A DNA stretch of 64,000 bases. Origin: Salinivirgaceae bacterium (lineage in GTDB: Bacteria > Bacteroidota > Bacteroidia > Bacteroidales > SZUA-534). The position numbers and the translations under genes were made by a program. Of the stretch, positions 24,880 to 40,637 are shown in pieces. Positions within the stretch are counted from its first letter, which is position 1, and the number at the start of each line of letters is the position of its first letter. Where the stretch lies: positions 18,363 through 82,362 of the forward strand of contig JAEEPS010000002.1 of assembly GCA_016284875.1 (NCBI GenBank), in the 5' to 3' direction. Under the pieces are notes generated by a model. The model was not told where the DNA came from. It made no database searches and worked only from the letters and a program-made list of their open reading frames with translations.

Positions 24880-27800
24880 ATGAGGAAACATTTGTTATTG
24901 ACGTGTGCGCTTGTGGCTTCGCTGACGAGTGCGTTTGGTGAGACAGTTAAATTTACCCATTCTTATTTGGATGAAGAAAACAACATCAAGAGAGTCTACC
25001 TTGAGTTGAACACTTCAAACCATGAAGCAACCGTGGTAAGTGGCGATTGGGAGTACACTGGCAAAATCATCATTCCAGACGCTGTGGAGTATCCTGAAGG
25101 AAGCGGCACCATGTACAAAGTCACAACTATTGGTAAGGGTGGTGACGCCACGCAAGCCAATTCTCCTTTTTACTATTGCTATGATTTGGATGAGGTCGTA
25201 TTTGGCGCAAATGTAAAAACCATCAAAAAAAACGCATTTTACCGTTGCGGAACTGAAAGCCGTCCGGTAAAGTTGAATTTGGATTCCGAAGGTCTTGTAA
25301 CAATTGAGACAAGCGCCATAAACCAAGTTGCTTTACGAGCAAACTATGGAGACAACACCATCTTGTTAGGCAAAAACATTACACAATTTGGCCCTGCAGG
25401 CGCAACAAGTACCGATAACTGGAATCCATGGGGCGACCTAATTAACATCACTGCCTTTAAAGTGGCCGATGGCAATACTGCATTTAGTACCGATGCTAAT
25501 GGTGTTTTGTACAATTCTGACAAAACCACTCTTATCTCATTCCCAAAATACAAAAATCAGAACACATTCGAAATACCCACAACAGTAACAACTGTAAGAA
25601 GTTACGCTTTTTACAAGATGAAATATCTTAGAACTGTTACTGGTGGTGACAATGTGGTACGATTGGGCAGCGTGATAAGCGGTTTAACATCACTTCGGAT
25701 GGGGGCAAAACTTACCACAATGAGTCCATCGGCATTCATGTACTGCGGTGAGAGTTTTGTACCTGTTATTGACGCTAGTAATACCACATTCAAACTGATT
25801 GACAATGTATTGTTCAAATTCGAAACCGACAAAGTTACATTGTGTTGGTTCTTAAGAGGAAATCAAACCGAAAATTATGTTATGCCTTCATTTGTAACCG
25901 ATATTCCTTACGGAGCCTTTTATCCGAATAAATATATTAAAACAATAGATTTCTCGCAGGCCACAAAATTGACACCAGATAAAATTGACAAAGATGCCTT
26001 TATAGGCACTGTTAATTCCATTGAATTTACAGGAGCAGAAAATTTTTACCACAATGTTGACGGAGTATGGTATAACTACGACTATACCCGATTGGAGATA
26101 TTCGGCTCAGATGCCACAGTTGAAAACTTTGTGATGAACGATGCAACCACAACACTCCCGCGTGCAGCAGTTAAGAAAAACGATAAGGTAAAAACCATTA
26201 AATTCAATAGTAAACTATCCTCGTTTGACTCGCAAGATTTTTACAAATGGGAGAATCTTGAAAAGTACTATGTTAAAGAAGGCAATTCAAAATTATGGGC
26301 TGATGCCGATGGTGTTTTATATAACAGCGCAAAGACAAAGGTTGTCGCCTATCCGCGTGGCAACACACGGGCATTTTACAAAGTTATTGATGGTACCACA
26401 AATATCGGAACCTATGCTTTTTACTATAATAAAAATCTGATGGCTCTGGATTTGGGCGACGACATCAAATCGGTTGTTGAGTCGAACTGCAACAATTTGG
26501 CTGGAATGCAACAATTGAAGGCCATAAAAGTGGGAACCATGGTACCACCTACAGTAACAACATCGACATTTACAAACTCACAACTTACAGGCGGAAACAT
26601 TGTGCTGTATATTCCGAAAGATGAAGGTGCATATGAGATTTATAAAAACGCATCCATCTGGAACCGTTTTACAATTATCCGCGATGTAAGCAAGTTTGAT
26701 GAGGAAATTCGCCAAATTCCTATTAATTATTCAGTCAAACATTATGTGCAAAATACTGATGACGACGATTATACATTAGTTGAAACAAATAACGCCACTG
26801 GCACATTGCTCGGCACATCAAACGCAACAGCCAAAACCGACGGGGACTATGCATACCTCGAACCACAATCATTCGAGCAGATAACGCTGAATAACAACGG
26901 AATGGCGGTTGAAATCAGATATCATCGCAAACCATTCACAATCACATGGAAGAACGGAGAAACAACACTTTTTACAAAAACTTACCGCTACGGTGCAAGT
27001 TTCCTTCAGGATAAACCTGATGATCCAGCAGCCGTTGCCGGCAAGCATTTTGTGGGTTGGAATACCGATGCCAATGCCACAGGAGCAACGACATTCAACG
27101 GCAGCGAGGTTGTGAGAGGCAACACCACCTATTATGCCATTTTTGCCGACAATGCAAACACCTCATACGTTGTCAAACATTATCAGGAAAACGCTGATGA
27201 CAACGGATACACACTTGTCGATACCGATAATGATTTGTCGGCACCGTTTGGCTCTTCAACCCATGCCGAGGCGAGATCGTACAATGGATTCAATGCTCCA
27301 GAATCAATTGCACAATTACCAATTGCCCAAGATGGTTCAACAGTTATCGAAATCCGCTACACCCGAATCGAATATCCTGTAACGTGGATTAATGGATCAA
27401 CAACATTGAGCAAGAGTGGCTATTACAAATATGGAAGCACATTAGATGTTCCTGACGACCCAGAGGCCGCACAAGGACAACGTTTTGTTGGATGGAATGA
27501 AAACTCCGAAGCACAATCCTCTGAACTTGGCCAAACGGTTCCTCTCGGTGGTGTCACTTACTATGCAATTTTCACCGCAACTGGTAATATGGATTACACC
27601 ATTAAGCACTATCAGCAAGATCTTGACGAGGTGCATTACACACTAGTTGCAACCGGAACGGGAACGGGTCAAATAGATTTTACGACAACCGCCCAACCCA
27701 ATAGTTATCCTGGTTTTACCCATCAACCCATTACACAGCAAACAATCACAGATGCTGGTGCAACAGTCGAGATCCGCTACAACCGCAACCGATACAATGT

Positions 27801-30800
27801 GGTTTGGAAAAATGGTAATGATGTATTCCAAACAGATAAAAATCAATTGTTCGGCAGTGCAATTCATGCTCCTGCGACAAATCCCGCAGCAGAACCCGGA
27901 GAGCATTTTGCCGGTTGGAACAGCGATCCTGACGCCGAATCACCAATTAATCTTGACAATGCAACCGTTACTGTTGACGGCATCACCTATTACGCAAAAT
28001 TTGCCACCAACGCAACTGTGCACTACACAGTTAAGCACTATTTGGAAAATCTTGACGGATCTTTCCCCGCTGACCCGGAAGACTTTGATGATGAAACCGG
28101 AGTCTTCGGACTGGACGCAACGGCAACAGTTAAAACATACACTGGATTCACCGCACAACAATTTACCCCGCAAACCATTGCCGAAGACGGCTCTACTGTA
28201 GTCAGAATTGAGTACCTGCGTAAAAGTCATTCGCTATCATGGAACGAAAATGGCGGTGAACTGAGCGGAAACTTTACAACTGGAGACGTCAAATTTGGTG
28301 CACCAATCACCGCCCCAACAGCAACACTCCTTGGTCACAGTTTCTTCGGTTGGAACACGTCAACCGAACATGCTACCGCAACCGTTCCAGAGACAATGCC
28401 TGACAACAATTTGACATTTTACGCCATTTGGAATGTTAATCAATACCATGCGGCATTCTACTACAACAATCCGGCACACGTGAACGAGGAATTTACAGGC
28501 TGGAACTACGATTTTAAAGCAACAATAAATCGTCCGGCAGGCAATCCTCTGCCAACAGATTACGACGGTCACCACGACTTTGTTGGCTGGTCTGCAAATA
28601 AAGACGGCAACATCAACGACATTATTACGGGTGACGATTTCGGCGAAATGACAACCGCTGGCGCCAAATTCTACGCCATCTGGCAGATTCACTCGAACAC
28701 TCTTGCATGGAACGCCAATGGCGGTAATGCACTTACAGGCAACTATACAAGCGGAACAGTTAATTACGATGCTGCAATTACTGCACCGAACGACCCGACA
28801 CGCACTGGTTATACCTTTAAAGGTTGGGCGACTTCAGAAAACGGCACACCTGTGGCAGCCGTATCAGCAACAATGCCCGACTATAATTTGACATACTACG
28901 CCATCTGGGAAATCAACAGCCATAATCTTTCTTGGAATGCCAATGAAGGTACGCTGAGCGGTGACTACACAGAAGGTGTGGTTGAATATGGCGCAACCAT
29001 AGATACTGCAACAGCCACTCGCACTGGTTACACATTCAAAGGTTGGGCAGAGACAGCCGAAGCAACAATAGCCGACATTATAACTCCTGCAACCTCAATG
29101 CCCGACCGTAATTTGACATACTACGCCGTTTGGGAAGTGCACAAGCACCAACTCACATGGTATCCGAATGGTGGACGATTTGTAACTTCAAATCAAGAAG
29201 GAGAACTTATTGAAGTCGACGACCCAAGTGGCCAAGTGGCTTACGGAACAGAGATTACAACACCACAAGTTAATCGCATCGACCCAGATCCGGAAATAGA
29301 GTGGAAATGTGCAGGTTGGGGAACATCAGAAGATGCAACCGTTGCAATAACACCTGCCAGCACCATGCCTGATGAGGATTTGGCTTACTATGCCATTTGG
29401 ATTCTCAAGAAAAATGTTGTAACATGGAAACGCAACTACAGCAATGATGATGATTTTAATGCTACTGCCACCCATGTTGAAGTTGGTCAGGACATTACCG
29501 CTCCCGACATGATTCCTGAAAATCCACATCATCATTTCTTAGGCTGGTCAGCCACACGTGATGGTGAAGTTATTTCCGATGGCAACTTCGGCAAAATGGA
29601 CACCGACAAGAAAGAATTCTACGCCCGCTGGGAAATCAACAGCCATAATCTTTCTTGGAATGCCAATGAAGGTGCGCTGAGCGGTGACTATACTGAAGGT
29701 GAGGTTGAATATGGCGCAACCATTACTCCCGCAACAGCAACACGCATTGGTTACGAATTCCAGGACTGGGCTTTGTCAACAAACCCAACCGTGGCCACTG
29801 AGATAAGCACAATGCCCGACAACGATGTTGAATACATCGCCATCTGGGAAGCAAAACCCTACCCCGTGACATGGATGAAGAATGACGGCACGGAGGAGAT
29901 TATCGATGTAACAAGTGTCTATTTCGATAGTGAAATTCAGCCGACAAGCAAAGATGTAGCACGCGAACACTATAAGTTCATTGGTTGGGCATCAACACCC
30001 GAAGGCGAAGTGATTACTAATTTCGGCACTCTAAAAACCGAAGGCGCAATCTTCTATGCAAAATGGGAAACCCGTAAATATGTGCTTGGTTGGGATGGCA
30101 ACAATGGTGTGTTGAGCGGAACCTACACTCCTGCTGGCGAGGTTGACTATGGCACACACATCTATCCTCCGACAGCAACACGCACCAACTACATTCATGC
30201 AGGTTGGGGTACGGCTGTCAAACCAGACTCTGCAGTGAATATCACCACAATGCCCGACAGTAGCGTTACTTACGTGGCCATGTGGTTGCCAAATCACTAT
30301 ATAGTGGAGTGGCGCAAAAACGACGGCACAGAAGATAACTATCAGGCTACGAATGTTGATTACAACAATCTTATTGTGGCACCAGAAATCAATCCGGAAC
30401 GCACTCACTATCAGTTCCTTGGTTGGTCAGAAACAGAAGACGGAGAAGTGATTACCGAGTTCGGCAAAATGTTAGCAGACCACGCGATATACTATGCTCA
30501 ATGGCAAATCAACAGCAATACTCTTTCATGGAATGCCAATGGCGGTGAGTTAAGTGGTAACTACACAAGCGGCAGTGTTGAATACGGCACTACAATTGTC
30601 CGTCCTGTGGCAACACGCGAAGGTTACACCTACAACGGATGGAACACCTACGCCGATGCCGTTGACAGCGTAAGCATCAGCACCATGCCCGACAACGACA
30701 TAGAATATTTTGCCATCTGGGCAGCAAACTCATACCATGTTTCATGGATGCGCAACGATGGCTCTGATGATATTTTTGAAACAACCGAAGTTGCATTTGG

Positions 30801-33204
30801 CAACCCAATCGAAAAGCCAAGCGACCCGTCGCGCGAGCACTACCAATTCTTAGGCTGGGCAACCGCTAGCGATGGCGACATTGCAACCGATTATGGTACA
30901 ATGGGAACTGAAGATATAACCTTCTACGCTCAATGGCAGATTAACAGCCATACGCTTGCTTGGAATGCCAATGGCGGAGAGTTGAGTGGCGATTACACAC
31001 AAGGTGAAGTTGAGTATGATTCAACTATCATTGTGCCGACCGCTTCTCGCATTGGTTTCACATTCGATGGTTGGGGCGCAACCGACAATGCAACCGAGGC
31101 TATCGAAATAACCACTATGCCAGACAACGATGTTGAATACTTCGCCATCTGGAAAGTAAACAGTTACACTGCTAAATGGCATTTCGATTCCGACAGCATT
31201 TTCGCATCGACAACTGTCAATTTCGGCGATACGATAAAAGCGCCATTGGCAATGCCTGAGCGCGCCGACTTCAACTTCCTGGGTTGGGCAGCAACCGAAA
31301 ATGGCAGCGCAATCGACAGTTTTGGACTCATGCCTGCCACAGATACAGCATTCTTCGCTGTTTGGGAGGAAATCGAAGTTGTAACTGACAAGTACGCCGT
31401 TCTTTGGAAACTGAACGATGGTACGGCTTCTGTATTCAAGACCGACAGCCTTGCCGAGGGTAAACCCATCTTGGCTCCGACTGAGAAACCCGAACGCGAG
31501 CAATTCACATTCGCCGGCTGGGCTGCAACTGAGACTGGTATTGCTATCGATAGTTTTGGCTTGATGCCTGCAGCCGATACAGCATTCTTCGCTATTTGGG
31601 AGGCTGTTGAAGACACAACCATCACACCGGCAACATTCACAGCCACATGGTACATGAACAACGGTTCTGACTCTGTATTCGTAACAAGCAAGTTCGCTGA
31701 GGGCGATAGCATTGTGACTCCGGCAGAGAATCCTGTTCGCGAGCAATTTACATTCGCTGGCTGGGCCGCAACTGAAAACGGTATAGCAATCGACAGTTTT
31801 GGTCTCATGCCTGCCGCCAACACTGCGTTCTTCGCTGTTTGGGAGGCTGTTGAAGACAGTTCTCTGCTCTCTGTCGATTGGCTCATGAACGACGGAACCG
31901 ATTCTGTATATATGATTCAGAAATATGCTCTGGGCGATAGTATTGCTGCCCCTGCAATCAATCCTGAACGCATTGGCCACCAATTCCTTGGTTGGTCGGC
32001 TGATAGCACCGGCACACTCATAACCAAGTTCGACACAATAAATGCCGACACTGCTTTCTTCGCCATTTGGATGAAGAATCAATATGTGATAACATGGTAC
32101 TTCGACCAAAACGACACTTTAAAAATCGACACCCTGGCTTATGGCGATGCGATCATCGCTCCTGCTGAGAATCCAGCGCGCGTGCATTACATATTCAAAG
32201 GTTGGGCAACCGCAGCCGAAAGCGACAGTGTGATTGCCGATTTTGGAACAGTAACTGACAGCGCATCATTCTATGCCGTTTGGGAAGAAGAAGTGGTGAA
32301 GCAATATGCAGCCGTTTGGTACTACAACGACGGCACCAACTCTGCATTCAAAACAACCATGGTCAATGCCGGCGCCACAATATCAGCACCGTCATCTACC
32401 CCAACCCGCGAACGCTATGAATTCAAAGGGTGGGCTACAACCGCCACAGGAAACGTTACCAACAACTTTGGCACAATGACCGAGGCCGGAGCCGTATTCT
32501 ACGCTGTTTGGGCTGCAATTGTCAACTTCGACGCACCAGAGAATTTCAACTCTTGTGAGACTGGCGACGACTTCATCAAACTTACCAACATAAGCCACAG
32601 CGACATTGTGTTTGAATGGAACATAAACGGCGATCTCGACTCGATACAAACCGATGGCTATTTCGAATTCAGCAAAGAAATGGCGTTGTCGGGAACTATT
32701 GAGGTAACTGGTATTGTTGGCAATAGCCGTCTGACAAAGACCATCAATTATCAACGCAACAAGGACATGCTGCGCACAATGTGGGACGATGTCATCACAG
32801 TTGTTAATGGCGAAGGTTACTTCAAATCGTTCAAATGGTATCATAATGGTGCGCTTGTCGATACTACCGAGTTGCACTATGAGGCCGGTGGATTGACTGG
32901 CACATACAAACTTGTCGCAACCACCGTTGATGATGTGGAAATCACTTCGTGCGAGATGACATTCAGTGAGCCGACAATAGCCTCAATAAGTGTCTATCCG
33001 AACCCTGTTGTCACTACTATTCGCGTTGAAAGCAGCAGTTTGACTCCAGGCGCAAGAATCTTCGTTCTGGACAACGATGGTAAAGTTCGCATGACAAAAG
33101 ATGCTACCGGTAACGGAAGTGAGGAGTTGAATGTATCAACCCTGCCACAGGGCATCTACATTGTGAAAATCGGCAACCAATCAGCATCTATTATTAAACT
33201 TTAA
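24880..33204 (+). CDS. Giant cell-surface protein: signal peptide, BspA-type leucine-rich repeats, about 22 InlB-B (Listeria-Bacteroides, Flg_new) repeats plus 4 KHY-type modules, T9SS C-terminal sorting domain
   Basis: 2774 aa. LRR_5-like segments include VKTIKKNAFYRCG, TVRSYAFYKMKYLRTV and IGTYAFYYNKNLMALDLG. B-repeats follow the pattern ..GYxFxGW....MPDxxxxYYAIW. The C-terminus reads SVYPNPVVTTIRVESS...GIYIVKIGNQSASIIKL, as in T9SS sorting domains. Confidence 0.9.
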   Translation: MRKHLLLTCALVASLTSAFGETVKFTHSYLDEENNIKRVYLELNTSNHEATVVSGDWEYTGKIIIPDAVEYPEGSGTMYKVTTIGKGGDATQANSPFYYCYDLDEVVFGANVKTIKKNAFYRCGTESRPVKLNLDSEGLVTIETSAINQVALRANYGDNTILLGKNITQFGPAGATSTDNWNPWGDLINITAFKVADGNTAFSTDANGVLYNSDKTTLISFPKYKNQNTFEIPTTVTTVRSYAFYKMKYLRTVTGGDNVVRLGSVISGLTSLRMGAKLTTMSPSAFMYCGESFVPVIDASNTTFKLIDNVLFKFETDKVTLCWFLRGNQTENYVMPSFVTDIPYGAFYPNKYIKTIDFSQATKLTPDKIDKDAFIGTVNSIEFTGAENFYHNVDGVWYNYDYTRLEIFGSDATVENFVMNDATTTLPRAAVKKNDKVKTIKFNSKLSSFDSQDFYKWENLEKYYVKEGNSKLWADADGVLYNSAKTKVVAYPRGNTRAFYKVIDGTTNIGTYAFYYNKNLMALDLGDDIKSVVESNCNNLAGMQQLKAIKVGTMVPPTVTTSTFTNSQLTGGNIVLYIPKDEGAYEIYKNASIWNRFTIIRDVSKFDEEIRQIPINYSVKHYVQNTDDDDYTLVETNNATGTLLGTSNATAKTDGDYAYLEPQSFEQITLNNNGMAVEIRYHRKPFTITWKNGETTLFTKTYRYGASFLQDKPDDPAAVAGKHFVGWNTDANATGATTFNGSEVVRGNTTYYAIFADNANTSYVVKHYQENADDNGYTLVDTDNDLSAPFGSSTHAEARSYNGFNAPESIAQLPIAQDGSTVIEIRYTRIEYPVTWINGSTTLSKSGYYKYGSTLDVPDDPEAAQGQRFVGWNENSEAQSSELGQTVPLGGVTYYAIFTATGNMDYTIKHYQQDLDEVHYTLVATGTGTGQIDFTTTAQPNSYPGFTHQPITQQTITDAGATVEIRYNRNRYNVVWKNGNDVFQTDKNQLFGSAIHAPATNPAAEPGEHFAGWNSDPDAESPINLDNATVTVDGITYYAKFATNATVHYTVKHYLENLDGSFPADPEDFDDETGVFGLDATATVKTYTGFTAQQFTPQTIAEDGSTVVRIEYLRKSHSLSWNENGGELSGNFTTGDVKFGAPITAPTATLLGHSFFGWNTSTEHATATVPETMPDNNLTFYAIWNVNQYHAAFYYNNPAHVNEEFTGWNYDFKATINRPAGNPLPTDYDGHHDFVGWSANKDGNINDIITGDDFGEMTTAGAKFYAIWQIHSNTLAWNANGGNALTGNYTSGTVNYDAAITAPNDPTRTGYTFKGWATSENGTPVAAVSATMPDYNLTYYAIWEINSHNLSWNANEGTLSGDYTEGVVEYGATIDTATATRTGYTFKGWAETAEATIADIITPATSMPDRNLTYYAVWEVHKHQLTWYPNGGRFVTSNQEGELIEVDDPSGQVAYGTEITTPQVNRIDPDPEIEWKCAGWGTSEDATVAITPASTMPDEDLAYYAIWILKKNVVTWKRNYSNDDDFNATATHVEVGQDITAPDMIPENPHHHFLGWSATRDGEVISDGNFGKMDTDKKEFYARWEINSHNLSWNANEGALSGDYTEGEVEYGATITPATATRIGYEFQDWALSTNPTVATEISTMPDNDVEYIAIWEAKPYPVTWMKNDGTEEIIDVTSVYFDSEIQPTSKDVAREHYKFIGWASTPEGEVITNFGTLKTEGAIFYAKWETRKYVLGWDGNNGVLSGTYTPAGEVDYGTHIYPPTATRTNYIHAGWGTAVKPDSAVNITTMPDSSVTYVAMWLPNHYIVEWRKNDGTEDNYQATNVDYNNLIVAPEINPERTHYQFLGWSETEDGEVITEFGKMLADHAIYYAQWQINSNTLSWNANGGELSGNYTSGSVEYGTTIVRPVATREGYTYNGWNTYADAVDSVSISTMPDNDIEYFAIWAANSYHVSWMRNDGSDDIFETTEVAFGNPIEKPSDPSREHYQFLGWATASDGDIATDYGTMGTEDITFYAQWQINSHTLAWNANGGELSGDYTQGEVEYDSTIIVPTASRIGFTFDGWGATDNATEAIEITTMPDNDVEYFAIWKVNSYTAKWHFDSDSIFASTTVNFGDTIKAPLAMPERADFNFLGWAATENGSAIDSFGLMPATDTAFFAVWEEIEVVTDKYAVLWKLNDGTASVFKTDSLAEGKPILAPTEKPEREQFTFAGWAATETGIAIDSFGLMPAADTAFFAIWEAVEDTTITPATFTATWYMNNGSDSVFVTSKFAEGDSIVTPAENPVREQFTFAGWAATENGIAIDSFGLMPAANTAFFAVWEAVEDSSLLSVDWLMNDGTDSVYMIQKYALGDSIAAPAINPERIGHQFLGWSADSTGTLITKFDTINADTAFFAIWMKNQYVITWYFDQNDTLKIDTLAYGDAIIAPAENPARVHYIFKGWATAAESDSVIADFGTVTDSASFYAVWEEEVVKQYAAVWYYNDGTNSAFKTTMVNAGATISAPSSTPTRERYEFKGWATTATGNVTNNFGTMTEAGAVFYAVWAAIVNFDAPENFNSCETGDDFIKLTNISHSDIVFEWNINGDLDSIQTDGYFEFSKEMALSGTIEVTGIVGNSRLTKTINYQRNKDMLRTMWDDVITVVNGEGYFKSFKWYHNGALVDTTELHYEAGGLTGTYKLVATTVDDVEITSCEMTFSEPTIASISVYPNPVVTTIRVESSSLTPGARIFVLDNDGKVRMTKDATGNGSEELNVSTLPQGIYIVKIGNQSASIIKL
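26728..32511 (+). repeat. In-frame coding repeat array (B-repeats of about 70-80 aa) with near-identical DNA copies
   Basis: By hand count, 28905-29000 and 29628-29723 differ at 4 of 96 nt. Three related copies lie around 31260-31380, 31500-31620 and 31740-31860. Confidence 0.85.
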
Positions 33205-33222: not shown

Positions 33223-34173
33223 ATGAATCGTTTAAATATATCAAATAACGGAAAAGCAAGAATGGGCTCAATATTAAAATTGGTTTTAGCAACAACTATT
33301 GTCGCCGTTTCGGCCACAACTTACGGACAGCGGCGCAATAGTTTCCAATACGTTTCTGCCGACTATGGCGGCGGTCTGCACAGCATTCAGTACTCACCCA
33401 TTGATGGCAAACACAAGGTTGGTGCCGGAATGACATTCAATCTCGGCTATCGGTATTTCCTGTCTGATCAATGGGCTATTAGCAGCGGTATCGGTCTGTC
33501 GACTTACAACGCGAAAACAATCTATAACAGCGCAAAACCTGATAACAACCGGAAATATGATATTCTGATTCCATCGTACGATTCAATTAATCAACTGGAT
33601 TTCGAATTCCGGACCTATTTCGACAATTTTAAGGAGAAACAGAAAGCCACTATTCTTGAAATACCAATTCAAGCCTATTATGAGTACGCTTTCCCGCAAA
33701 CTCGCTTTGAAGTATTTGGCAAGGCAGGTTTCAAAATCGGCATTCCTGTGTCAAGCAAGTACAAACTGATGAAAGGCTCATACGAGACTCGCGGCTACTA
33801 TCCTGTTCTGGGCCATGAAATCTACTCCACTTCCGACAGCGTTTATGTCCATGGTTATGGCATCTACGAGGCAGAGAAACAAAAAGGAAAGATGAAACTA
33901 AACCCCGTCAATCTTTCGCTCGCCATTGAAGGTGGTGGTCATTTCCGGCTTAATAAGATGATCAGACTTAGTGCTTCGCTTTACTTCGGCTACTGTCTCA
34001 CCAACATTCACAAAGACAGCATTGAGCCGATTATTAATGAGGAATACGTATACAACGGCACTTTGCAATCAAACCAAATTGATCGTGCTTCACTCTTGTC
34101 GCTTGGTTTAAAAGCAGGTGTTGTATTTGACATCAACGAACTACTCAACAAAAAAGGTCGTCCGAAATTCTAA
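33223..34173 (+). CDS. Outer-membrane beta-barrel protein (OMP_b-brl_2 / porin-family-like)
   Basis: 316 aa with a signal peptide and alternating amphipathic strands ending in an aromatic-rich C-terminus (LKAGVVFDI). It starts 19 nt after the giant gene stop. The start could instead be the M at 33262. Confidence 0.6.
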   Translation: MNRLNISNNGKARMGSILKLVLATTIVAVSATTYGQRRNSFQYVSADYGGGLHSIQYSPIDGKHKVGAGMTFNLGYRYFLSDQWAISSGIGLSTYNAKTIYNSAKPDNNRKYDILIPSYDSINQLDFEFRTYFDNFKEKQKATILEIPIQAYYEYAFPQTRFEVFGKAGFKIGIPVSSKYKLMKGSYETRGYYPVLGHEIYSTSDSVYVHGYGIYEAEKQKGKMKLNPVNLSLAIEGGGHFRLNKMIRLSASLYFGYCLTNIHKDSIEPIINEEYVYNGTLQSNQIDRASLLSLGLKAGVVFDINELLNKKGRPKF

Positions 34174-34200: not shown

Positions 34201-34869
34201 TTACTTCAGAAGCCTGACAATCTGGTTTTCTGAAGCATTGGGAAGTACGCCTTTTAGGTGCTCAAAAATCTTTTCAAATGACTCATTAGGCGAACAATCA
34301 CATTTGCACGATTCAAGTCCGTATAGTTGTTCGGGGGTGGTAAGCAACGACCACCCCCAACCATATTCATGCCCGTGACGGTCGATGGGATAGACAAAAT
34401 CTTCAGTTACAATGCGACAAGCCATCTGCAGACGAGTGATGTAACCGTCAAACTTGCTGCGCATGTTTGAACCAGTGAAACCACAAGCCGATCGAAGGTC
34501 GCGGGTAATCATGCTACCCTGCGCCTGCAATGTGAACAATATGGCTTCTTCGATGGTGCCAGCAGAGGGTTGCGGATGGATGCTACGGCGATAGTTGCAG
34601 AAATCGGGCCACCACTTTCGACTGATAAACCCCGCTTTGCCAGCAAAGAATTTGCCATAGACGGTGCTGCCTTCTGTCAGAATAGAGCCTTTCCACTTCC
34701 ACAGCAGCCACTCCCAACCGCCATCGGGTAATGGCGAGTAGCGACACTCATCACTCACCATCTCCTCGGCAGAATAGCCACTGATGCCACTGTCAAGCAA
34801 AGGCAGAAAACCTATCTGCTGAATCAGTTCTATCAGTTGCGCCTGATTAGTAATATCTTGACAATCCAC
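34201..34869 (-). CDS. Hypothetical cytoplasmic protein, possibly winged-helix YcaQ/AlkZ-related
   Basis: 222 aa, Trp-rich (WEWLLWKWKG, RKWWPDF), with no signal peptide. The family assignment is a weak recollection only. Confidence 0.35.
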   Translation of the reverse strand: MDCQDITNQAQLIELIQQIGFLPLLDSGISGYSAEEMVSDECRYSPLPDGGWEWLLWKWKGSILTEGSTVYGKFFAGKAGFISRKWWPDFCNYRRSIHPQPSAGTIEEAILFTLQAQGSMITRDLRSACGFTGSNMRSKFDGYITRLQMACRIVTEDFVYPIDRHGHEYGWGWSLLTTPEQLYGLESCKCDCSPNESFEKIFEHLKGVLPNASENQIVRLLK

Positions 34870-34909: not shown

Positions 34910-36382
34910 TTAGAACCTAAAACCTGCTGTTAGCACGAAATTGCCAACCCGGCTTTTCATTTTGGTCTCGCTTTCTTGATAAGTGTAGATGTATTTGGTC
35001 TCATTCTTTGTACGCAAATTGTAACCCAAATCAATGAAAGCCCAATGTCCACGATAGCCAGCACCAATACTGTATACCATCTGGTGAGCCGATGAATTGA
35101 CATGGCCGCTCTTGTAAGGACTACCGTAGAAACCGAATCCGGCTCGTGCAACTGCAGGGCCAAAAGTCAGTTCGCCGCCAAGTCGCAGGTTAACAGTGGT
35201 GCGAAGTTCTGCAGAAATGAGGCCATTGAGTTCATCGTATTCGTTGCCAATTTGGATATCGTCATCTTTGATGGTGGCGTCCGAATATTTAACAACCTCA
35301 CAATCAACATCAATCATTCCATGCTCTGGTGCTACAAAAGCGATACTGCCGATAAATTTAGCCGGCATCGTCAAACGCCAGTCAACAGTACCTGTCGAAT
35401 TATAGCTTTGTTTTGTAGTGTAATACGTGACATCATTAGTATTGTTGTCTTGCTCACTATACCACACAGAAGACTCAACTTTTGTACCATAATCGTCAGT
35501 CAACGACAAGATGGTAGGGGTGTGGAAAGCCGCTCCCACTCTTAAATTATCATTCAACCAGCCAATTACGCCCAACTTCAGATTGACGCCTCCGCCTGTA
35601 GTCCAAAACTCGTCAGTAACATTAAAATAATCAATTGTAAAATCTTCAATGTCAGGTTCTTCTGTATATTTCGACACATGACGGTAATCGACATGGACAA
35701 TGTTCAGCGAACCTCCGATATAAAATTCATTGTTGATGTTTGCACCCAACAGGAAACTGTAATCTCCCAAACTACCATCGGTTGTTACCGACTGTCGCTG
35801 ATTTGAACCATAAACGCCAAAATCCTCATAATCATTTATATACCTGTGCATAGATGAGTCGTAAATAAACAAATCGGTATTATAGAACGGATCGCGATCC
35901 CAATAATCGACATTGAAATCGTCAACAGCCTTATCGAGCAGCGAACTGACATCATTATAGCCCCTTACCGAATAACCACCATCAAAATTAGTCAGACGGT
36001 TGTAAACAAAACCCATATTGAACGATACCAATCCGGTTTCATCAACTGGAATCGCCGAAGCCAATCCGACATTCGAAAAGCGGAAACTGCTTGAATTTGA
36101 TTTTGCCGTTGTACCATAATATTTTGCCGTCTCCTTATCTGTTGTCCACATTGGCGAAATTGTCATTTGTCCGTTACGATAAACGCCGAGGCCCGCAGGA
36201 TTGACAGTTACTGCTGTCAAATCACCGCCAATGGCACCCATTGCACCGCCCATCGATACGAATTTTGCCGTTCCTGCCGGAACTATGTTTGAGTAACGGA
36301 TGGCATCGTCGATATTTTGAGCCGACACAACCGTTGCAACACCAAACATAAACAAAACTGATATAATTGATTTTGCCTTCAT
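34910..36382 (-). CDS. FadL/TodX-like outer-membrane transport barrel
   Basis: 490 aa with a signal peptide ending VSAQ. The conserved-looking N-terminal plug segment is DAIRYSNIVPAGTAKFVSMGGAMGAIGGDLTAVTVNPAGLGVY, and the C-terminus is the barrel-closing ...VLTAGFRF. Confidence 0.65.
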   Translation of the reverse strand: MKAKSIISVLFMFGVATVVSAQNIDDAIRYSNIVPAGTAKFVSMGGAMGAIGGDLTAVTVNPAGLGVYRNGQMTISPMWTTDKETAKYYGTTAKSNSSSFRFSNVGLASAIPVDETGLVSFNMGFVYNRLTNFDGGYSVRGYNDVSSLLDKAVDDFNVDYWDRDPFYNTDLFIYDSSMHRYINDYEDFGVYGSNQRQSVTTDGSLGDYSFLLGANINNEFYIGGSLNIVHVDYRHVSKYTEEPDIEDFTIDYFNVTDEFWTTGGGVNLKLGVIGWLNDNLRVGAAFHTPTILSLTDDYGTKVESSVWYSEQDNNTNDVTYYTTKQSYNSTGTVDWRLTMPAKFIGSIAFVAPEHGMIDVDCEVVKYSDATIKDDDIQIGNEYDELNGLISAELRTTVNLRLGGELTFGPAVARAGFGFYGSPYKSGHVNSSAHQMVYSIGAGYRGHWAFIDLGYNLRTKNETKYIYTYQESETKMKSRVGNFVLTAGFRF

Positions 36383-36414
36383 CTTTCAATAGTATTTATC
36401 AGAACAACAATAAA

Positions 36415-37812
36415 TTATCTTCGTCCACGACCGCCACCACTACTGTGACCGCCACTACTGTGACCGCCACTGCTATGACTGCCGCCACTACTGCGGCTGC
36501 CACCGCTGTAACTGCCACCGCTGCTGTGACTACTGCCACTACTGCGGCTGCCACCGCTGTAACTGCCACCGCTGTAACTGCCACCGCTGCTGTGACTACT
36601 GCCACTACTGCGGCTGCCACTGCTGTAACTGCTGTGCGATGAGCCAGAACTTGACGAAGATGAAGATGAAGATGAAGATGAACTTGACCGGAATGAAGAA
36701 CTACTGCTACTATGCGAAGTTCCGCTACTACTACTGCTACTACTGCTACTGCCGCTGCTGTATGTAGAGCTTGACCCGCGAGTTGCTGTGCTCACCCTGC
36801 TGCCTGTACGCGCTGTTGTGCTTGGCTGTTGCTGCACACTGCGTCCACGGCTTTGTGTTGCTGATGCCGATCTTGTTGATGATGAAGCACTTCCTTGATT
36901 AACGTTGCTGTTATTACTATTGGTTGCCTGACTTGATGAACTTCTGCTGGCTCCGCTTTGCGAAACAGAACCATTGGTAGTTGAAGTGCGTCCGCGAACT
37001 GCCGTGCTTGACGAAGCCGCCGTGCTTGACGAACCCGATCCGCCTGAATGACCAACTACAGTTGAAGAGTTGCCACTATTCCGCGACTCTCCACTTCGTC
37101 CGCGAATTACAGTTCGATCATCACGCGACGACGAGGTGCTGGTTGTCGCACTCCGCCTTGGGCCATAGTTGCGACTGTTGCTGCTGCTGGCATAGTTGCT
37201 GTGATGATGGCGATGGCGATAAGTGTACAACGGATAATAATGCCGATAGTATGGATAGTAATGGTGGTAGTACCACGGATCGTAATATCCATAATAGTAA
37301 TCCCAATATGAGTAATAACTCGGATAATAGTGATACCCGTAATACCAATTATTATAATAATGATGATGATAACGCCATGAATAAGGATAGCCGAATGTCA
37401 AGTCCCAAGCCAAATCCCAAGCAAGATCATCCCATCCCCAACGGTCATAATAATAAACATGCACATTGACAGGTTGGACATTGACATCTGTCTCTCCATC
37501 AGCGAAATACTTTCCATCATAATCATCACTGAAACGCATCAAACGGCGCTCGTACTCTCCCATCTCGCCGTCATCAGTCTCTCCTCCGTCATAATTATCA
37601 GCATCGTCATTATCTCTGTTGACTTTTGCCATCTGATATTCTTCCGATTCGGAAGCCGATGTCTGAGCATAACTCGTTTCCTGTTTGATGTCAGTCTTAG
37701 GATTGAAATAAACGTCGTCGTAATAATACCCCGTCAATCCTGCTGTTGAACCGCATGAAGCAGCAAACCCTGTTGCCGCCGCTGCCACTAATAATAAAGT
37801 TAGATTTTTCAT
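36415..37812 (-). CDS. Extreme low-complexity lipoprotein: acidic segment, Tyr/His/Trp-rich segment, long Ser/Thr/Gly/Arg-rich tail with tandem GGSYS/SSGSSHS repeats
   Basis: 465-aa ORF with the canonical lipobox GFAASC. The aromatic block reads WRYHHHYYNNWYYGYHYYPSYYSYWDYYYGYYDPWYYHHYYPYYRHYY. The last roughly 270 aa are almost entirely S/T/G/R/N/H. It ends 33 nt upstream of the FadL-like gene. Confidence 0.7.
   Translation of the reverse strand: MKNLTLLLVAAAATGFAASCGSTAGLTGYYYDDVYFNPKTDIKQETSYAQTSASESEEYQMAKVNRDNDDADNYDGGETDDGEMGEYERRLMRFSDDYDGKYFADGETDVNVQPVNVHVYYYDRWGWDDLAWDLAWDLTFGYPYSWRYHHHYYNNWYYGYHYYPSYYSYWDYYYGYYDPWYYHHYYPYYRHYYPLYTYRHRHHHSNYASSSNSRNYGPRRSATTSTSSSRDDRTVIRGRSGESRNSGNSSTVVGHSGGSGSSSTAASSSTAVRGRTSTTNGSVSQSGASRSSSSQATNSNNSNVNQGSASSSTRSASATQSRGRSVQQQPSTTARTGSRVSTATRGSSSTYSSGSSSSSSSSSGTSHSSSSSSFRSSSSSSSSSSSSSSGSSHSSYSSGSRSSGSSHSSGGSYSGGSYSGGSRSSGSSHSSGGSYSGGSRSSGGSHSSGGHSSGGHSSGGGRGRR
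36425..36730. repeat. In-frame tandem DNA repeats (15-nt subunit; 51- and 66-nt higher-order units; GAAGAT hexamer run)
   Basis: gccactactgcggctgccaccgctgtaactgccaccgctgctgtgactact at 36484-36534 recurs at 36535-36600 with one extra 15-nt unit, and again partially from 36601. (gaagat)n lies around 36655-36685. Confidence 0.85.
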
Positions 37813-37982
37813 AGTAGTATGATATTAGGTTTATTGGTTTGTCTCAAAAATTGTGCCACTATTAAATTATCAAATTTCGGTGTTTTTTAGAGTTCTCCTC
37901 AACTCTTTTAATTTACTTTGCACCATCTTTATTAAAAGATAAAATTAGTAAAACATTACAAAAATACCAAATAAAAAAGACG

Positions 37983-39455
37983 ATGGGCAAATTTTTGACT
38001 TCGAGAAGCGAGAATTACTCGCAATGGTACAACGAGTTGGTTGTGAAAGCCGACTTGGCCGAGAACTCAGCCGTCAGGGGCTGTATGGTGATAAAACCTT
38101 ATGGATATGCAATTTGGGAGAAGATGCACGATGCTCTCGACAAGATGTTTAAGGACACCGGACACGTGAATGCTTATTTCCCGCTTTTCATTCCGAAATC
38201 GTTCCTTAGCCGCGAGGCCGACCACGTTGAGGGCTTTGCCAAGGAGTGCGCCGTGGTTACTCACTACCGTCTGAAAACCAATCCCGACGGCTCGGGCGTG
38301 ATTGTTGACCCCGAAGCCAAACTTGAGGAGGAGCTGATTGTCCGCCCAACATCGGAGACTATCATCTGGAGTACATATAAAAACTGGATTCAGTCATACC
38401 GCGACCTGCCGATTCTGTGCAACCAATGGGCCAACGTTGTCCGCTGGGAGATGCGTACGCGCTTGTTCCTTCGCACTGCTGAATTCCTTTGGCAGGAAGG
38501 TCACACTGCCCACGCCACCAAAGAGGAGGCTGAGGTTGAGGCTCGCCGCATGCTCGATGTTTATGCCAAGTTTGCCGAAGAGTTTATGGCCGTGCCGGTC
38601 ATCAAGGGTGTGAAGACTGCCAACGAGCGTTTTGCCGGTGCTCTCGACACCTACTGCATCGAGGCTCTGATGCAGGATGGCAAGGCTCTACAGGCTGGAA
38701 CATCGCACTTCCTTGGTCAGAATTTCGCGAAAGCGTTCGATGTGAAATTCCTGAACAAAGAGGGCAAACAAGAGTTGGTTTGGGCCACAAGTTGGGGTGT
38801 ATCGACTCGCCTGATGGGCGCGCTCATCATGTCGCATTCTGATGACAACGGTCTTGTTCTGCCGCCGAAACTCGCACCAATTCAGGTGGTTATCGTGCCT
38901 ATCTTCAAAGGTGACGAAGAGAATGCCAAGATGCGTGAGTTGGGCAACAAACTCAAAGCCGATCTTGAGGCTAAAGGTCTGTCAGTCAAGTTCGACGACC
39001 GCGACACGCAGAAACCGGGCTGGAAGTTTGCTCAGTACGAACTGCAGGGCGTTCCGGTGCGCATCGCCTTTGGTGCCCGCGACCTTGAGAACGGCACCGT
39101 TGAGATTGCCCGTCGCGACACACTCGAGAAAGAGACCTACCCGGTTGGTCAGGCTGTTGACATCTGCACAAAACTGATGGACGAGATTCAGGCCAACATC
39201 TATAAGAAAGCGCTCGATTTCCGCGCTGCCAACATCACCAAAGTTGACACTTGGGAAGAGTTTGAGGCTGCGCTTGAGAAGGGCGGATTTGTGTCGGCTC
39301 ACTGGGACGGCACCACCGAGACCGAGGTTGCAATCAAAGAGAAGACAAAGGCCACCATCCGCTGCATTCCGTTGGGCAACCCGCTCGAGGAAGGCAAGTG
39401 CATCCTGACTGGCAAGCCGTCGAAGCAGCGCGTGCTGTTCGCAATTGCTTATTAA
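37983..39455 (+). CDS. proS: Proline--tRNA ligase (archaeal/eukaryote-like class IIa type)
   Basis: 490 aa with the N-terminus [38 protein letters not shown] and the C-terminal ...RVLFAIAY typical of this ProRS type. Confidence 0.95.
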
Positions 39456-39520: not shown

Positions 39521-39590
39521 CGTTTCCGTCCCCGCCCCCATTTTCAATTGTTATTTTTTAATTGTTATTTTGCCTAAAAAAATTACCATC

Positions 39591-40637
39591 ATGCTTGATT
39601 ATAGCGAAGTAACACTAAATCAGATTGTTGTGCACAACATTGGCAGCCGTTCTGAAGACCAAGGTGTGCAGATTTCGAAAGCACCGACGCAGATTTTTGA
39701 CGAAACGGCCGAGGACATTCTAAAAACATATTTCCTGTCGCATTTCAAGACCGAATACTTCTACCAATTTGTGGATAACGAAGATTTACAGCAAAATGCG
39801 GTTTACGATTCCGTCAGCAAGGTGTTCGACGACAATGCCCAGTTCTATCAGCAATCCACCAACATCGCCTGGCATCTGTATGAGAAATCGAATAACCAGA
39901 ACATTAAAACCGGCGAGTTCTACATGGTGTATTTCAGCGGGATACAGATTGACGGTGTGGCGGTTGATGCCATCGGTATATTCAAATCGGAAAACAAGGA
40001 CACATATATAAAGGTGTGCCAGCAAGGCGACAGTTACGGCGTTGAATACGAAAACGGCATCAATATCAAGAAGTTGGACAAAGGATGCCTGATTCTGAAC
40101 AACGAGCGCGAGACAGGCTACCAGGTGGCCATTGTCGACAGCACCAACCGCGGCGATGAGGCGATGTACTGGCGCGAGAGTTTCCTGAACGTGATGCCGC
40201 GTGAGAATGAATACTACCAGACCAACCAACTGTTCGACATCTGCAAGAATTTCAGCCACGATATGCTCACATCGCAAAACAAGGTTGACAAGGCCGACCA
40301 GGTGACTTTTATGAAGCGCGCCGAGCAGTTCTTCAACACAAACGACTTTTTCGACAGCGAACAGTTCAAGAACGATGTTATTGGTAACGAGCAGGTTAGC
40401 GCAGCATTCGAAGACTACAAGCGCAAGTTCGAGAACCAGAAGATGCTCTCGCCGATTGACCAGTTCGAGATTTCGGGCGAGGCCGTCAAACGTGGCAAGA
40501 AATATTTCCGCAGCGTGATTAAACTCGACAAGAATTTCCACATCTACGTGCACGCCAATCCCGACTACATTGAGAAAGGATTTGACGAGCACAAAGGTTT
40601 GAAATTCTACAAGTTATTCTTTAGTAACGAGGAGTAG
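39591..40637 (+). CDS. Nucleoid-associated protein, NdpA/YejK-like (NA37 family)
   Basis: About 348 aa from the ATG at 39591 (the track ORF begins at a TTG at 39570). LNQIVVHNIGSRSE near the N-terminus and the overall size fit the family. Confidence 0.6.
   Translation: MLDYSEVTLNQIVVHNIGSRSEDQGVQISKAPTQIFDETAEDILKTYFLSHFKTEYFYQFVDNEDLQQNAVYDSVSKVFDDNAQFYQQSTNIAWHLYEKSNNQNIKTGEFYMVYFSGIQIDGVAVDAIGIFKSENKDTYIKVCQQGDSYGVEYENGINIKKLDKGCLILNNERETGYQVAIVDSTNRGDEAMYWRESFLNVMPRENEYYQTNQLFDICKNFSHDMLTSQNKVDKADQVTFMKRAEQFFNTNDFFDSEQFKNDVIGNEQVSAAFEDYKRKFENQKMLSPIDQFEISGEAVKRGKKYFRSVIKLDKNFHIYVHANPDYIEKGFDEHKGLKFYKLFFSNEE

Follow-up and report, generated by a model that had tools for sequence, protein, structure and literature searches.

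A conserved family of Bacteroidota lipoproteins, predicted to be disordered, encoded beside a FadL-type outer membrane barrel

A stretch of 64,000 nucleotides (nt) from a Salinivirgaceae bacterium of the Bacteroidales (assembly GCA_016284875.1, contig JAEEPS010000002.1, positions 18,363 to 82,362), referred to here as the window, carries on its minus strand a gene for a lipoprotein of extreme composition, labelled X in this report, followed by a gene for an outer membrane barrel of the FadL type and divergent from proS, the gene for prolyl-tRNA synthetase. X is a real gene under strong purifying selection, not a chance open reading frame (ORF), and belongs to a large, conserved, unnamed and essentially uncharacterised family of Bacteroidota. 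The best explanation of the gene pair is a two-gene outer membrane module, made up of lipoprotein and barrel and conserved across Bacteroidota, that is analogous to yet distinct from the BamG-BamH pair. The gene and its parts are the following.

36415..37812, minus strand: complete coding sequence of X, 465 amino acids (aa) plus stop codon, with an ATG start; from the ORF listing, homologues of the same architecture and purifying selection.
37753..37812, minus strand: signal peptide with lipobox (residues 1-20), Cys20 being the predicted site of lipidation; from the sequence and a cysteine in 67/72 family members.
37699..37719, minus strand: N-terminal family motif DDVYFNP, residues 32-38, 12 residues past Cys20; from alignments A3, A5 and A6.
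37555..37698, minus strand: acidic variable head, residues 39-86, with a net charge of -8 over residues 51-80.
37531..37554, minus strand: second family motif YERRLMRF, residues 87-94, in which Y87, R90, R93 and F94 are nearly invariant.
37201..37455, minus strand: aromatic block (Tyr, Trp, His, Pro), residues 120-204; from composition, with the lowest ratio of nonsynonymous to synonymous change (dN/dS) in the gene.
36418..37200, minus strand: basic Ser/Thr/Gly/Arg tail, predicted to be disordered, residues 205-465, ending RGRR; from composition, with a net charge of +19.
36429..36634, minus strand: in-frame tandem repeats coding for (S/G)n-[YRH]-S units; from Tandem Repeats Finder.

The first 20 residues of X read MKNLTLLLVAAAATGFAAS followed by the cysteine, the lipobox ending in GFAAS before C20. 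An initial annotation of this DNA had described the lipobox as textbook; the cysteine is well conserved in the family, but position -3 is Ala and not Leu. Mature X has no hydrophobic stretch in its sequence beyond the signal peptide. Residues 21-130 are rich in Asp (16%), Glu (8%) and Tyr (12%), residues 131-205 in Tyr (37%), His (15%), Trp (8%) and Pro (7%), and residues 206-465 in Ser (44%), Gly (16%), Arg (9%) and Thr (8%), the last residues being GGGRGRR; [GS]Y[GS] motifs occur four times. The tandem repeats, whose periods range from 15 to 66 nt, lie in the C-terminal GS(Y/R/H)S region. Composition and Tandem Repeats Finder agree with the layout originally proposed, an acidic head, a Tyr/His/Trp block and a Ser/Thr/Gly/Arg tail with tandem repeats. 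AlphaFold2, supplied with a 77-sequence alignment, returned a mean predicted local distance difference test (pLDDT) score of 46.7 and secondary structure only in the signal peptide, in keeping with the low-complexity nature ascribed to the protein; the model predicts X to be wholly disordered.

In the three nearest species (L014, L015 and L016; loci are numbered in this way throughout) the frame of X is intact and every insertion or deletion is in frame, these changes being concentrated in the Ser/Gly repeats, the length of which differs among these close species. In comparison with L014, dN/dS was lowest in the aromatic block (0.04), with 0.10 in the head and 0.15 in the tail, at a proportion of synonymous differences (pS) of 0.45-0.56. 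It is these low ratios at a pS of about 0.5, along with uninterrupted counterparts in relatives, that distinguish X from a chance ORF, and the earlier view of a genuine exported lipoprotein gene is upheld. Frameshifts or stops in syntenic relatives, envisaged in the initial annotation, are excluded by the frames intact in 71 loci and by the in-frame changes. The exact X protein was found on four contigs from separate assemblies, and the closest genome is a Salinivirgaceae metagenome-assembled genome (MAG) from sheep abomasum, the barrel of which is 92% identical to that of the window. ORFs of 73-162 aa overlap X in other frames or on the other strand (36367..36642, plus; 36399..36620, minus; 36981..37469, plus), with products such as 'TATTTVTATTV…'; these are by-products of codon repeats and composition and should not be annotated.

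No match to X was found in scans of Pfam and NCBIfam, and sequence searches of the PDB with the single sequence or a profile gave nothing meaningful, as had been anticipated when no described family was recognised. A search with the full-length protein collected 223 proteins of 380-500 aa with the same architecture, all from Bacteroidota, and every one named by its source was 'hypothetical'. Low-complexity words saturated this search (8,000 candidates were scored and the query itself did not come back), and profiles of the N-terminal part were therefore used. A profile of the N-terminal 230 positions retrieved 339 proteins from the indexed database, and an exhaustive profile search of 1.84 billion cluster representatives yielded 3,432 at E<=1e-3, 1,454 at E<=1e-10 and 153 at E<=1e-30; among the 150 matches listed, nearly all begin at or near residue 1. 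The family extends over the Bacteroidales, Flavobacteriales, Chitinophagales and Cytophagales, cultured Hymenobacter being among the last.

Functional annotation was absent among the family members examined; UniRef calls one Hymenobacter member a YXWGXW repeat-containing protein, and 10 Asn/Lys-rich representatives obtained by cluster look-up, none of them from Flavobacterium, were either 'hypothetical protein' or unnamed. YXWGXW repeat proteins (PF12779) and X are alike in being aromatic- and Gly-rich and exported. This assignment was nevertheless rejected, with no match to PF12779 at E<=0.1 for X nor at E<=1 for three other members. The name YgcG, given to a single Joint Genome Institute (JGI) entry, is an artefact of the Gly/Ser tail. 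Nor is X a T9SS (type IX secretion system) cargo, having no C-terminal sorting domain (Por_Secre_tail), no Pfam or NCBIfam match and a GS-rich C-terminus that ends in RR.

The anatomy of the family was derived from 72 X sequences. The lipobox cysteine is found in 67 of them, mostly within L-[AST]-[SAG]-C, and is followed at 9-15 residues (most commonly 11-12) by the motif DD[ILV]Y[YF]xP, in which D32, D33 and Y35 of X are invariant or nearly so in the alignments A3, A5 and A6. The five members without the cysteine have instead a signal-peptidase-I site with Gln at +1, and keep the motif 3-7 residues after the site. After a variable acidic head (mean net charge -13) comes the second motif, with the consensus Y-x-x-R-[IL]-R-R-F-[HN], and then a conserved stretch YYDP.Y…YWY.Y.P..WG.S.Y.GY. 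The aromatic block of about 100 aa contains on average 30% Tyr, 15% Gly, 7% Trp, 6% Pro and 4% His, whereas the tail of about 265 aa is made up of Ser (27%), Arg (12%) and Thr (10%) with only 5% Asp plus Glu, for a mean net charge of +26. The C-terminus is Gly/Ser-rich, with a basic last residue in 70/72 sequences and an 'RR' end in 47/72. The acidic lipoprotein export signal, by which surface lipoproteins of this phylum are marked, was found in none of the 67 lipidated members, which have no Asp/Glu cluster at +1 to +6; in X itself Cys20 is followed by GSTAGL.

The window copy carries the cysteine, DDVYF at residues 32-36, YERRLMRF at 87-94, the aromatic block, a tail ending in RR and an adjoining barrel gene, and is a typical member of the family apart from an unusually His-rich block and an unusually Ser-rich tail. 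Lipobox and aromatic block, whose conservation across Bacteroidales the initial annotation had put forward for checking, are kept there and beyond, but histidine is not: its share of the block has a minimum of 0% and exceeds 8% in only 9/72 sequences, compared with 12-15% in the window copy.

A second Bacteroidales family (P0003, P0004, P0023, P0072 and P0083; L007 6001-7278) has a back half like that of X, with an aromatic Trp/Tyr/His block, a Ser/Thr/Arg tail and a GS-rich end in RR. The front half of these P0083-type proteins is different, with a signal for signal peptidase I and an N-domain of about 130 aa that is probably folded and contains a weak DxDxNGDG loop resembling EF-hand/dockerin (ETITVSANS…NLDLNGDG.VDYLRV). 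Their gene is not beside a FadL barrel, and in L007 it follows LptF/G and ribBA. As this family shares the aromatic-plus-cationic tail without having a FadL barrel as neighbour, the tail looks like a reusable module.

Downstream of X lies the gene for its presumed partner.

34910..36382, minus strand: outer membrane barrel of the FadL/OmpP1/TodX family, 490 aa; from AlphaFold2, Foldseek, a profile match to TbuX and PF03349 on homologues.

AlphaFold2 modelled this protein, with a pLDDT of 91.5, as a 14-strand barrel of the FadL fold having the NPA motif and a complete N-terminal hatch, predicted at residues 22-71, that plugs the lumen. The best structural matches in Foldseek were BamG of F. johnsoniae, B. 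thetaiotaomicron and P. gingivalis, FadL of E. coli and P. aeruginosa, and TodX/TbuX (E of about 1e-15 for FadL, TodX and BamG), with template modelling (TM) scores of about 0.5-0.65 depending on normalisation and 11-14% identity; PorV was a much weaker match. Searched against the PDB, the barrel profile matched TbuX at E=4.9e-6, and neither the profile nor the single sequence found a BamG chain at E<=10. Since the profile matches TbuX but no BamG chain, the barrel is a distinct FadL-family paralogue and not BamG. PF03349 was detected on many homologues, although the window barrel alone falls below Pfam detection and was likewise without a match in the NCBIfam scan. N61 and P62 do not vary at all, and little or no variation is seen at A63 or in the mature N-terminus (Q22, D26, A27 and R29). 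The first mature residue of the barrel, Q22, is an invariant Gln, and a Gln also stands at the predicted +1 position in the signal-peptidase-I variants of X (L031, L036, L055, L062 and L072). Under the 'Q-rule' of Bacteroidota, the N-terminal Gln of signal-peptidase-I substrates becomes pyroglutamate, and the Gln of both the barrel and the non-lipidated X variants fits this rule.

The stop codon of X and the start of the barrel gene are separated by 32 nt, within which no terminator-like site was found, and the two genes are probably co-transcribed. With the barrel as query (an 8-sequence alignment), 80 genome loci were fetched, of which 73 had enough upstream DNA to be assessed. An uninterrupted X gene lies upstream of the barrel on the same strand in 71 of these 73, with gaps of 16-270 nt, in agreement with the tight linkage to an outer membrane barrel noted at the outset; a 72nd, at locus L093, is broken only by masked bases. 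The remaining assessable locus, L078 from Flavipsychrobacter, has no X, and its barrel is probably a paralogous or relocated copy. In L078 (966..3872), which also has no proS, the protein upstream is one of 968 aa with an apparent T9SS sorting tail and a metalloprotease HExxH motif, both read directly from the sequence and not from a domain scan. The loci span Salinivirgaceae, Tenuifilaceae, MAGs labelled Rikenellaceae, Lentimicrobium, Perlabentimonas and Flavobacteriales, and the pairing also occurs in Agriterribacter (Chitinophagales) and Cryptobacteroides. On the other side of X are two further features.

37813..37982, no strand: intergenic region common to X and the divergent proS; read directly from the sequence.
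37983..39455, plus strand: proS (prolyl-tRNA synthetase), divergent neighbour, a positional marker and not a functional part; from Pfam domains on related contigs.

A possible promoter of the Bacteroidota type, TTTG ... AATTTTTG, can be read on the minus strand about 35 nt upstream of the start codon of X, the assignment resting on its match to the known -33/-7 consensus. proS is divergent upstream in 70/80 loci. The X-barrel pair is kept where proS is absent or the neighbours differ, as in L004, and no evidence was found for a functional link between X and proS, a candidate that was set aside as the pairing is kept without proS.

Downstream of the barrel, at a distance of up to about 4 kb, a WbqC-like gene (PF08889) was observed in about a quarter of the loci (L005, L006, L012, L019, L020, L022, L023, L025, L030, L031, L033, L037, L043, L054, L055, L058, L062, L068, L072, L080, L091 and L094-L096). 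The lipid A genes lpxD, lpxC and lpxA adjoin the module in Cryptobacteroides-type loci only, and the window has neither an lpx nor a WbqC-like gene. This proximity could be a link to envelope biogenesis or merely inherited gene order; a link of the module to lipopolysaccharide (LPS) genes was rejected, given the restriction of the lpxD/C/A neighbours to Cryptobacteroides-type loci.

In Flavobacterium johnsoniae, the genes Fjoh_4939 (proline-tRNA ligase), Fjoh_4940 (a signal peptidase II (SPII) lipoprotein without an export signal, of unknown function) and Fjoh_4941 (an OMPP1/FadL/TodX barrel of 55 kDa) follow one another (PMC12045153), which is the very order of proS, X and barrel in the window. 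Both Fjoh_4940 and Fjoh_4941 were detected in membrane fractions, that of the outer membrane included, the former with about 46 spectral counts, similar to BamG, and depletion of TamL raised Fjoh_4941 5.6-fold and Fjoh_4940 2.6-fold, along with the LolA and LolB homologues; the authors remarked on a possible functional link between the two (PMC12045153). Fjoh_4940 was assigned to the lipoproteins facing the periplasm, and its presence in vesicles was not reported (PMC12045153 and preprint). In a further study Fjoh_4941 (A5FA29) was detected and falls on depletion of subunits of the machinery for beta-barrel assembly (BAM), Fjoh_4940 being absent from the supplements of that work (PMC12611786). 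The X genes of two Flavobacteriales MAGs (L045 and L070) carry the family motifs, and their tails are richer in Asn, Pro and Lys.

The nearest precedent for such a pair is BamG-BamH, in which a FadL-like barrel grips the conserved lipidated N-terminal tail of a lipoprotein, and the related BamG2 and BamH2 are co-transcribed from an operon (PMC12578637, PMC12611786). The likeness consists in a 14-strand FadL-fold barrel with a conserved extended N-terminus, paired with a lipoprotein, BamG being the top Foldseek match of the barrel of X. On the other hand, BamG has only 13-14% identity to this barrel, no closer than FadL of E. coli, with no sequence-level PDB match, and BamH has an export signal and a folded two-domain arch, carbohydrate-binding-like, whereas X has no export signal and is predicted to be disordered. 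An identity of barrel and X with BamG2 and BamH2 was ruled out, the latter being encoded in F. johnsoniae at fjoh_1686-1685, a locus other than that of Fjoh_4940/4941. The barrel of X has in common with the FadL, TodX and TbuX channels its fold, an N-terminal hatch and an NPA motif, but exceeds the solved chains of FadL, TodX, TbuX and BamG in length by about 60-100 residues, at an identity of 11-14%, and has a dedicated lipoprotein partner, predicted to be disordered, of which no equivalent is known for the proteobacterial channels.

The reading tentatively preferred here, with a confidence a little short of even, is that X is a periplasm-facing disordered lipoprotein docked on a dedicated FadL-type barrel and acting in envelope or lipid homeostasis. 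X would be exported by Sec, lipidated at Cys20 and, because it has no export signal, retained on the periplasmic face of the outer membrane. The DD[ILV]YY motif, at a fixed distance from the lipid anchor, would dock X onto the barrel, possibly with help from Y..R[IL]RRF, while the rest of the protein would extend into the periplasm as a block polyampholyte without a fixed fold, in which the acidic head is followed by about 100 aa of Tyr/Trp/Gly block and about 260 aa of polycationic Ser/Thr/Arg tail. There the aromatic block may lie in the interfacial zone of the membrane or hold hydrophobic cargo, and the Arg-rich tail may attach to polyanions (peptidoglycan or anionic lipids, for example) or to the Tyr block of adjacent copies of X, the output being envelope or lipid homeostasis.

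From several lines of evidence, all circumstantial, we infer that X forms a complex with the barrel, that the motif serves for docking and that X faces the periplasm, as well as what the tail binds. Docking is suggested by the strict synteny, by the constrained spacing of 9-15 residues between cysteine and motif and by the survival of the motif in the five members that have lost the anchor, as well as by the BamG-BamH precedent and the conserved mature N-terminus of the barrel (Q22, D26, A27 and R29). The topology is argued for by the missing export signal in all 67 lipidated members and by the periplasm-facing class of Fjoh_4940, and a role in envelope homeostasis by the co-induction of the F. 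johnsoniae pair on TamL depletion. The conserved architecture of charge blocks (head -13, tail +26, a basic C-terminus in 70/72) supports the model as a whole.

A number of points weigh against this reading. The absence of an export signal predicts, but does not prove, a periplasmic orientation, and BamH, on which the docking analogy is modelled, lies at the surface and has a folded domain. The barrel, with its invariant NPA motif and its hatch, may simply be a transporter co-expressed with X. The P0083-type family has a similar block and tail without a FadL barrel, so the function of the tail is not tied to the barrel. Further, we infer that Fjoh_4940 is a member of the X family from its position and its class as an SPII lipoprotein without export signal only, and the tryptic peptides of Fjoh_4941, when mapped on the barrel family, are positionally consistent but statistically weak.

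A bolder reading, conceivable though somewhat improbable, is that X represents a new class of envelope protein, a phylum-wide lipoprotein without a folded domain, its function borne by two short docking motifs and a block-polyampholyte chain. It would form a barrel-anchored Tyr-Arg condensate or a polycationic tether under the outer membrane, and would be an organising principle of the Lpp-less Bacteroidota periplasm with no counterpart in Proteobacteria. The FUS-family Tyr/Arg 'sticker' domains and the His/Tyr-rich proteins of squid beaks and Nereis jaws are eukaryotic. X shares with FUS-type and squid-beak proteins the [GS]Y[GS] motifs, Tyr-rich and Arg-rich blocks and, in the window copy, an enrichment in His, but is unrelated to them by descent.

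As an alternative to the docked lipoprotein of envelope homeostasis, X might be a cargo accessory of a true FadL transporter of fatty acids, lipids or aromatics, its aromatic block receiving the cargo in the periplasm or offering it a greasy conduit, perhaps in the form of a Tyr-Arg condensate below the channel. In favour are the FadL hallmarks retained by the barrel (the hatch, the N61-P62-A63 motif and the profile match to TbuX), the aromatic block as the region of X under the tightest constraint (dN/dS of 0.04), and the induction of the F. johnsoniae pair together with factors of lipid and lipoprotein trafficking. This proposal is nonetheless considered unlikely, since no genes for fatty acid catabolism or activation are linked to the pair, the long cationic Ser/Arg tail would be left unexplained, and FadL substrates exit sideways into the outer membrane, not into the periplasm (PMC12611786).

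The initial annotation had envisaged surface roles such as adhesion, biofilm formation or biomineralisation, and X could accordingly be pictured as a surface-exposed low-complexity coat, with a Tyr/His block for metal binding, adhesion or mineralisation and heavy O-glycosylation along the Ser/Thr tail. The composition of the window copy is suggestive of such a coat (37% Tyr and 15% His in residues 131-205, 44% Ser in the tail), and BamG-BamH shows that a lipoprotein of the surface can be held by a FadL-like barrel. Extracellular loop 3 of Bacteroidota BamA, a structurally invisible segment of 38 residues, rich in Tyr, Gly and Asn and of unknown function, shows that such sequences occur on the surface of the phylum (PMC12578637); its likeness to X is compositional only, within an outer membrane context, the loop being part of a barrel and on the extracellular side. 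A coat is very doubtful for all that, and the surface roles are disfavoured with it, as the export signal is missing in 67 of 67 lipidated members and the F. johnsoniae counterpart is classed as periplasm-facing and not reported in vesicles. Metal binding through His is not supported as the function of the family, in which His averages 4% of the block and may be entirely absent, the values of 12-15% being confined to this lineage and a few others. Nor is the suggestion supported that the tail is a large target of general O-glycosylation: the sequon D-(S/T)-(A/I/L/V/M/T), counted in its canonical form only, does not occur in X and has a mean of 0.7 per family protein.

An equally doubtful alternative to docking on the periplasmic side is a threaded sensor of the RcsF type, with anchor and body on opposite sides of the membrane, the chain passing through or alongside the barrel, and the cationic tail monitoring LPS or lipid packing and reporting envelope stress. 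RcsF and LpoB of E. coli are outer membrane lipoproteins in which a disordered segment of about 30-60 residues, leading to a folded domain, works by threading a barrel or spanning the periplasm, and the threading of RcsF through OmpA/C/F is an established precedent. A long disordered lipoprotein with a polycationic tail, encoded beside a barrel, and the induction of the F. johnsoniae pair on depletion of TamL, which acts in outer membrane homeostasis, are compatible with such a sensor. Unlike RcsF and LpoB, to which it is not homologous, X has about 445 residues of predicted disorder and no folded domain, signalling or other, and no conserved gene for a signalling partner is found nearby. Moreover, the lumen of the barrel, with its invariant NPA motif, is plugged by the predicted hatch (residues 22-71), and five members have no lipid anchor. 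A spurious ORF across a non-coding repeat region, despite the low-complexity, repeat-rich DNA and the long ORFs on the opposite strand, is already refuted by frames intact in 71 relatives, and in a 72nd interrupted solely by masked bases, by conserved motifs, in-frame changes and dN/dS of 0.04-0.15 at a pS of about 0.5, and by detection of the counterpart protein by mass spectrometry in F. johnsoniae.

The outer membrane biology of Bacteroidota has recently been shown to depart from the E. coli model, with FadL-like barrels as docking platforms for lipoproteins (BamG-BamH, PorV). X and its barrel constitute a third pair of FadL-type barrel and lipoprotein, conserved in the phylum and unstudied. 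The theme of the barrel-lipoprotein pair is itself known, and the novelty lies in a lipoprotein that is predicted to be wholly disordered yet is under strong purifying selection. If X indeed tethers or organises the periplasm or aids lipid traffic, a gap would be filled in the envelope upkeep of gut, rumen and environmental bacteria, and X would be a rare bacterial case of function encoded in conserved low-complexity sequence. The TamL-responsive pair Fjoh_4940/4941 is a tractable model for this hypothesis, and the X family, with at least 1,454 cluster representatives, merits a Pfam or NCBIfam model.

Other genes surround the module in the window. A gene for an AlkZ-related protein (PF24741, E=1e-67) lies at 34201..34869 on the minus strand, 40 nt downstream of the barrel and in the same direction; this neighbour is lineage-specific and is not conserved with the X-barrel module elsewhere. 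Beyond proS are found a gene for a 37-kDa nucleoid-associated protein (NA37, PF04245) at 39570..40637 on the plus strand, then an ORF of 95 aa and thrS. On the plus strand at 24880..33204 is encoded a protein of 2,774 aa with many repeats of about 85 aa and a type IX secretion C-terminal sorting domain (PF18962), for which the precomputed Pfam matches are LRR_5 (faint), Flg_new_2 (faint) and Flg_new. It is directly followed, at 33223..34173 on the plus strand, by a gene for a small beta-barrel of 316 aa (OMP_b-brl_2). The larger protein has the look of a giant T9SS cargo, for which the 316-aa barrel may be a dedicated outer membrane partner.

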